Positions 6,193-7,101 of a stretch of 24,000 nt of DNA are shown in pieces (position 1 is the stretch's first letter; each line of letters opens with the position of its first letter). The translations under genes were made by a program, and so were the position numbers. The DNA comes from Candidatus Providencia siddallii (lineage in GTDB: Bacteria > Pseudomonadota > Gammaproteobacteria > Enterobacterales > Enterobacteriaceae). The notes under the pieces are model-generated. The model was not told the origin of the DNA and did no database searches. It worked only from the letters and a program-made list of their open reading frames with translations. The stretch covers positions 696,442 through 720,441 of the forward strand of contig NZ_OZ034688.1 of assembly GCF_964026685.1 (NCBI RefSeq), written 5' to 3'.

Positions 6193-7101
<909 letters not shown>

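Follow-up and report, generated by a model that had tools for sequence, protein, structure and literature searches.

An apparently gained UGA at the kdsA terminus of 'Candidatus Providencia siddallii', a symbiont in which UGA seems to encode tryptophan elsewhere

The kdsA gene of 'Candidatus Providencia siddallii' runs into TGA precisely where its product normally ends, in a genome that elsewhere seems to use the same triplet for tryptophan. Does this UGA still terminate translation, or does KdsA carry a nine-residue tail that reaches to the next in-frame TAA? An earlier note on this DNA, made from the sequence alone, posed that either/or, and it was the right question to ask, since the codon stands at the homologous terminus of the protein; the same question has been posed in print (PMC10540940).

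The window, by which we mean the whole 24,000-nucleotide stretch analysed here (20.9% GC), almost certainly belongs to strain PSAC, a symbiont housed in the bacteriome of the leech Haementeria acuecueyetzin, with a genome of 756 kbp at 22.0% GC (PMC10540940). Manzano-Marin, Kvist and Oceguera-Figueroa (2023, Genome Biol Evol 15:evad164; PMC10540940) described PSAC as being at an early and ambiguous point in the reassignment of UGA from stop to Trp, with UGA at Trp positions in 125 of 610 genes (20.5%), essential aminoacyl-tRNA ligases included, and the three of 15 complete window genes with a TGA at a Trp position (murJ, ispE and orn) agree with that share. Strains PSLP and PSOF have only nine UGA-interrupted genes each (PMC10540940), and because these sets contain neither murJ nor orn, both strains are excluded as the source. 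PSAC retains prfB, yet with an in-frame UGA of its own, and the anticodon of its trnW is still CCA (PMC10540940). The same authors named kdsA among nine PSAC genes that possibly still use a UGA stop, and pointed out that other genes, for example rpsK, would be extended a long way if UGA no longer worked as a stop (PMC10540940).

Both the observation at kdsA and its two-sided interpretation are already published for this same gene. What we add is modest: the kdsA UGA stop appears to have been gained and not retained, the cost of reading through it would be trivial, and the few UGA sites in the window are split by the base that follows (the +4 base). To our knowledge, no other described bacterium reads UGA as Trp in numerous essential genes and at the same time encodes release factor 2 (RF2) and has genes that end on UGA. 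Genes like kdsA are a direct test ground for the ambiguous intermediate against codon capture, a point that has been made in print before.

The end of kdsA and where its TGA came from

The assignment of kdsA, which encodes 3-deoxy-8-phosphooctulonate synthase, rests on a full-length match above the curated equivalog cutoffs: 468.6 bits for NF009109 (cutoff 457, residues 7-283), 393.9 for NF003543 (cutoff 242) and 364.4 for TIGR01362 (cutoff 314). E. coli KdsA (PDB 1d9e) has 284 amino acids, and its residues 1-282 pair with residues 1-282 of the window protein. Among 80 Enterobacterales loci the protein is 284 residues long in 76 and 283 in the other four, so that the TGA, which follows 284 codons, the length that the earlier note gave for E. 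coli KdsA, stands exactly at the normal terminus of the family. Such a position is clearly not due to chance, and the codon is a current or a recent stop. The features on which the argument turns are collected in the table.

Table. Features of the window that bear on the meaning of UGA
Feature	Position	Strand	Observation
murJ in-frame TGA, codon 108, at a Trp position, followed by A	4884..4886	minus	MurJ homology on both sides; TGG in PSOF (W108)
First in-frame TAA past the kdsA TGA	6193..6195	minus	A read-through product would stop here, 293 aa long
Eight spacer codons rich in T, F-L-Y-L-F-F-L-F	6196..6219	minus	Translated only if UGA is Trp
TGA where KdsA ends ancestrally, next base T (UGA-U)	6220..6222	minus	Apparently replaced an ancestral TAA
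kdsA coding sequence, 284 sense codons (start ATG 7074-7072, stop TGA 6222-6220)	6223..7074	minus	NCBIfam equivalogs; collinear with 1d9e
prmC (release-factor glutamine methyltransferase)	7335..8165	minus	Intact, no in-frame TGA
prfA (RF1), for UAA and UAG only	8165..9244	minus	Intact; PxT (PET) and GGQ motifs normal, identical to PSOF
ispE in-frame TGA, codon 262 (counted from ATG 13295), at a Trp position, followed by A	12510..12512	minus	TGG in PSOF (W264)
lolB terminal TGA at the ancestral terminus, followed by T	13292..13294	minus	Overlaps the ispE start (ATGA; ATG 13295-13293)
orn in-frame TGA, codon 143, at a Trp position, followed by A	22793..22795	plus	Trp at this site in E. coli Orn

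With termination at the TGA, window KdsA would end in ...IDINN; with the TGA read as Trp, nine residues would follow, W-F-L-Y-L-F-F-L-F, before the TAA at 6195-6193. The tail given for this frame in the earlier note was right in every residue except the third, which is L and not Y. In an AlphaFold model, whose mean pLDDT is only 73, the last helix finishes at residue 275 and residues 280-284 fall below a pLDDT of 50, and a short tail at this predicted end would probably be tolerated. Neither PSOF nor the 80 relatives have a homologous C-terminal extension, and none of these relatives exceeds 284 amino acids. Programmed read-through with a functional extension was considered and ruled out, the tail being unconserved and PSOF having TAA TAG directly after codon 284. 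A functional role for the hydrophobic tail was likewise rejected, since the tail is nine residues of translated T-rich spacer that are missing in all relatives. A search downstream of kdsA gave no significant RNA structure (z = -0.72), and no terminator-like site was found 3' of the gene.

The age of the TGA can be judged from the relatives. The gene ends ...GAT ATT AAT AAT TGA TTT in the window and ...GAT ATT AGT AAT TAA TAG in PSOF; TAA also ends kdsA in all four of the free-living Providencia that we compared and is the stop in 67 of the 80 relatives. Because TAA stands here in PSOF and in the four free-living Providencia, the TGA is, by parsimony, derived: on this comparison the ancestral stop would have been TAA, and TGA would have been gained within the PSAC lineage. 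That runs counter to the view, put forward in the earlier note, of an old TGA stop left in place, and it differs from the published account of PSAC, in which UGA stops are described as 'retained' (PMC10540940). The route from TAA to TGA was possibly an A-to-G change or a small deletion. The spacers 3' of kdsA in the window and in PSOF align with an offset of 1-4 nt.

The comparison with PSOF draws on a contig of the draft assembly GCA_001457715.1 that is syntenic with the window and has the same gene order. Window KdsA is 77% identical to PSOF KdsA, the closest named protein among the matches listed, in which the closest free-living proteins are also from Providencia (74-76%, the best being Providencia huashanensis at 76%); KdsA of strain PSLP is absent among the best matches listed. 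Across the 12 genes common to the window and the PSOF locus, the only TGA stop besides that of kdsA is that of lolB, which is TGA in both strains. With the lolB TGA kept and the kdsA TGA new, TGA stops have therefore not been purged at this locus, and one has apparently been gained. A further stop codon differs between the two strains, that of pgsA (16525-16527), which is TAG in the window and TAA in PSOF; the two C-termini differ by two residues, and the homology of the stops is uncertain. If the two are homologous, this would be a second A-to-G stop-codon difference beside that of kdsA, counter to the strong AT mutational bias.

The in-frame TAA that follows the kdsA TGA after eight intervening codons had been read as a meaningful backup, a suggestion that its distance does not bear out. 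The next in-frame TAA or TAG lies a median of 6 codons away for the genes of the window, and for all positions of its AT-rich spacers the median is also 6 and the mean 8.8, with 39% of distances at 9 codons or more. We accordingly rejected a selected backup (a fail-safe tandem stop) at 6193-6195, the distance being at chance level for the composition of the spacer. Selection for fail-safe stops has not been found in bacteria generally (PMC6764699).

UGA inside genes and at their ends

That UGA is read as Trp in this genome, as the earlier note had supposed, is upheld by murJ, ispE and orn. In each of them in-frame homology continues past the TGA, which stands opposite a PSOF TGG or an E. coli Trp, and because of this we take some UGAs here to be read as Trp, on the evidence of these alignments. 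The homology of ispE to its PSOF counterpart runs 25 residues beyond codon 262. For orn, the profile match under code 11 halts at position 142 of 189, and the code-4 translation aligns with E. coli Orn from end to end with Trp at codon 143. We also note that ispE, with its Trp-position TGA in the window (W262), is among the only nine UGA-interrupted genes of PSLP (PMC10540940).

At the other end of the scale stands lolB, whose TGA overlaps the start of ispE. PSOF shares both the TGA and the 4-nt overlap (lolB 3209-3865 and ispE 3862-4737 of the PSOF locus). Because a change of TGA to TAA would ruin the ispE ATG, the codon is mutationally locked, and judging from the two sequences it is a truly ancestral UGA stop. 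Read-through would append W-F-W-H-G-H-L-L-A-N, which includes a second TGA, so that LolB would end in ...WVLKK with termination and in ...WVLKKWFWHGHLLAN with read-through. The published list of nine possible UGA-stop genes does not contain lolB (PMC10540940). The claim that kdsA offers the strongest evidence in the window for UGA as a stop has to be given up on two counts: the lolB TGA, found in PSOF too and locked within ATGA, is at least as good, and the imbalance of codon usage is a broader argument.

This imbalance is large. The window has 68 Trp codons, 65 of them TGG and three TGA (4.4%), whereas in the pairs for Lys, Glu, Gln, Leu (TTR) and Arg (AGR) the A-ending codon takes 90-95%, and UGA is thus far from equilibrium as a sense codon. 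Its low share means either that the change is very recent or that UGA is still a costly and inefficient codon for Trp, and the latter would be expected if RF2 goes on competing for it. Set against a complete code 4, in which UGA is Trp only, the window has in-frame UGA at conserved Trp positions (murJ, ispE, orn), but UGA is not the predominant Trp codon, and homology in kdsA and lolB does end on UGA, at ancestral termini. UGA for Trp at conserved positions and an AT-biased, reduced genome are features shared with code-4 bacteria (Mycoplasma/Spiroplasma; Hodgkinia, Zinderia, Nasuia, Stammera). Lineages with full reassignment, however, have lost prfB and have UGA for Trp in 50-70% of genes (PMC10540940), whereas here UGA makes up 4% of Trp codons and UGA termini persist.

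The sense and terminal UGAs also differ in the base that follows, which is A at all three sense TGAs (murJ, ispE, orn) and T at both terminal TGAs (kdsA, lolB). With a baseline of 35% A after the 65 TGG codons of the window, three out of three gives p ~0.04; T stands at +4 of 11 of the 15 window stops and is the norm for stops here. The split of A and T at these five sites is suggestive only, and it fits the direction known from E. coli, where A after UGA favours read-through by Trp (cited in PMC10540940) and U at +4 lowers read-through (PMC5289835). A run of A follows the UGA within prfB (PMC10540940).

The likeness to E. coli goes further than the direction of the context effect, since the two competitors at UGA are the same, the tRNA-Trp(CCA) that reads through and the release factor. 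UGA read-through in E. coli, however, is a low-level error, whereas many essential proteins of PSAC depend on it. For E. coli, an influence of context on the reading of UGA by tRNA-Trp(CCA) was reportedly described by Engelberg-Kulka in 1981 and Kopelowitz in 1992, along with suppression of the Hirsh type, and an effect of the +4 base on termination by RF2 is said to go back to Poole and Tate and to Wei and Xia in 2017.

We speculate, with more doubt than confidence, that the base after UGA sets its meaning, A calling for Trp and U for a stop, which would amount to a stable dual use of one triplet. If that were true, new UGA stops could still arise in mid-reassignment, as at kdsA in the change from TAA to TGA; it would give direct natural support to the ambiguous intermediate, against codon capture; and it would be a bacterial equivalent of the stops that ciliates and Blastocrithidia recognise by their context. 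In Blastocrithidia and in Condylostoma and other ciliates, the same triplet is a sense codon inside genes and the terminator at their ends, a parallel that has been drawn for PSAC as well (PMC10540940). 

How the kdsA UGA might be decoded

Eukaryotic dual-meaning stops rely on the proximity of the mRNA 3' end and on poly(A)-binding protein, or on an altered eRF1 or tRNA. We know of no such mRNA 3'-end cue in bacteria, and local sequence context is therefore the only obvious discriminator. A takeover of UGA by RF1 with altered specificity was considered and rejected, the PET and GGQ motifs of prfA being the same as in PSOF; with RF1 unchanged, any termination at UGA must come from RF2. Beside prfA lies prmC, intact in the window, in contrast to strain PSLP, where it is UGA-interrupted (PMC10540940). 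The stop of prfA and the start of prmC overlap by one base in TAATG (8163-8167, minus strand).

The reading that we favour, and hold to be rather probable, is that UGA is decoded ambiguously and at kdsA mainly terminates, giving a normal enzyme of 284 amino acids. At every UGA, near-cognate tRNA-Trp(CCA) would compete with a limited pool of RF2, so that the codon would have no single meaning; the supply of RF2 would be reduced, prfB itself having an in-frame UGA (the state of prfB and trnW being taken from PMC10540940). The stop of kdsA would have moved from TAA to TGA with the following T kept, and since the UGA-U context favours the release factor, the kdsA UGA would mostly terminate. A minority of ribosomes would insert Trp, read the eight T-rich spacer codons and halt at the fortuitous TAA, leaving WFLYLFFLF on a C-terminus that is predicted to be flexible. 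Both forms of KdsA would probably be active, and the change from TAA to TGA would then have been nearly neutral and could have been fixed by drift. The published account expects read-through to yield 'rather large proteins' (PMC10540940), whereas KdsA would gain only nine residues. How termination and read-through are balanced at this codon is our inference. Against a predominance of termination, it counts that 125 genes need read-through (PMC10540940), so that RF2 must have little activity and many of the ribosomes may run past the kdsA UGA too. With an extension of only nine residues, nothing forces the upkeep of termination there.

The main rival, which we hold to be less probable, is that reassignment is effectively complete and UGA is read as Trp at kdsA as well. 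KdsA would then be a protein of 293 residues ending in WFLYLFFLF, and the change from TAA to TGA would be a stop-loss fixed by drift and tolerated because a TAA lies eight codons on and the C-terminus is flexible. The need for UGA as Trp in three window genes and in 125 genome-wide, and the in-frame UGA of prfB, speak for such a state (PMC10540940), as do the shortness of the kdsA extension, the chance distance at which it ends and the predicted disorder of the C-terminal residues. The KdsA chain of H. influenzae (PDB 1o60) has 292 residues, of which only 1-282 are aligned, and weakly suggests that the fold allows some 10 additional residues at the C-terminus. Against this, prfB is otherwise kept, where four fully reassigned endosymbionts have lost it, and rpsK and other genes would receive long extensions (PMC10540940); the UGA-U context of kdsA favours termination (PMC5289835); and UGA is only 4.4% of Trp codons, where comparable pairs stand at 90-95% A-ending.

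A standard code throughout would make the kdsA TGA unremarkable and murJ, ispE and orn recent pseudogenes made by TGG-to-TGA changes. Such changes are the commonest nonsense route under AT-biased mutation and fall on Trp positions by definition, and the remaining 65 Trp codons of the window are all TGG. We nevertheless consider this very improbable, since the three genes keep intact in-frame homology to their normal ends, the functions of murJ and ispE are essential, and the same pattern is seen in 125 of 610 genes, essential ones included (PMC10540940). Least credible of all is a base-calling or assembly error at the kdsA stop. In its favour, the codon differs from that of PSOF by one base and the sequence is very rich in AT, but kdsA is listed as UGA-ending in the authors' curated annotation (PMC10540940), and with G a rare base here a spurious G is unlikely.

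The rest of the window

The genes lie in the order aspS, argS, murJ, kdsA, prmC, prfA, ychF, pth, prs, ispE, lolB, fabV, pgsA, mscM, psd, orn. hemA, which lies upstream of prfA in E. coli, is found neither in the window nor in the PSOF locus. Between the compact genes are long spacers of about 10-14% GC without ORFs (5208-6219, 13922-14664, 17065-17828 and 22907-24000), which may be the eroded remains of lost genes. A tRNA-Ser(GGA) at 5796-5881 on the plus strand was called by ARAGORN, with the Rfam tRNA model silent at its gathering threshold, and the three other tRNAs of the window were found by ARAGORN and Rfam alike. No fabI was found in this stretch; the enoyl-ACP reductase is FabV (14665-15879, minus strand; 609.9 bits, cutoff 400), and FabV is present in both PSAC and PSOF.
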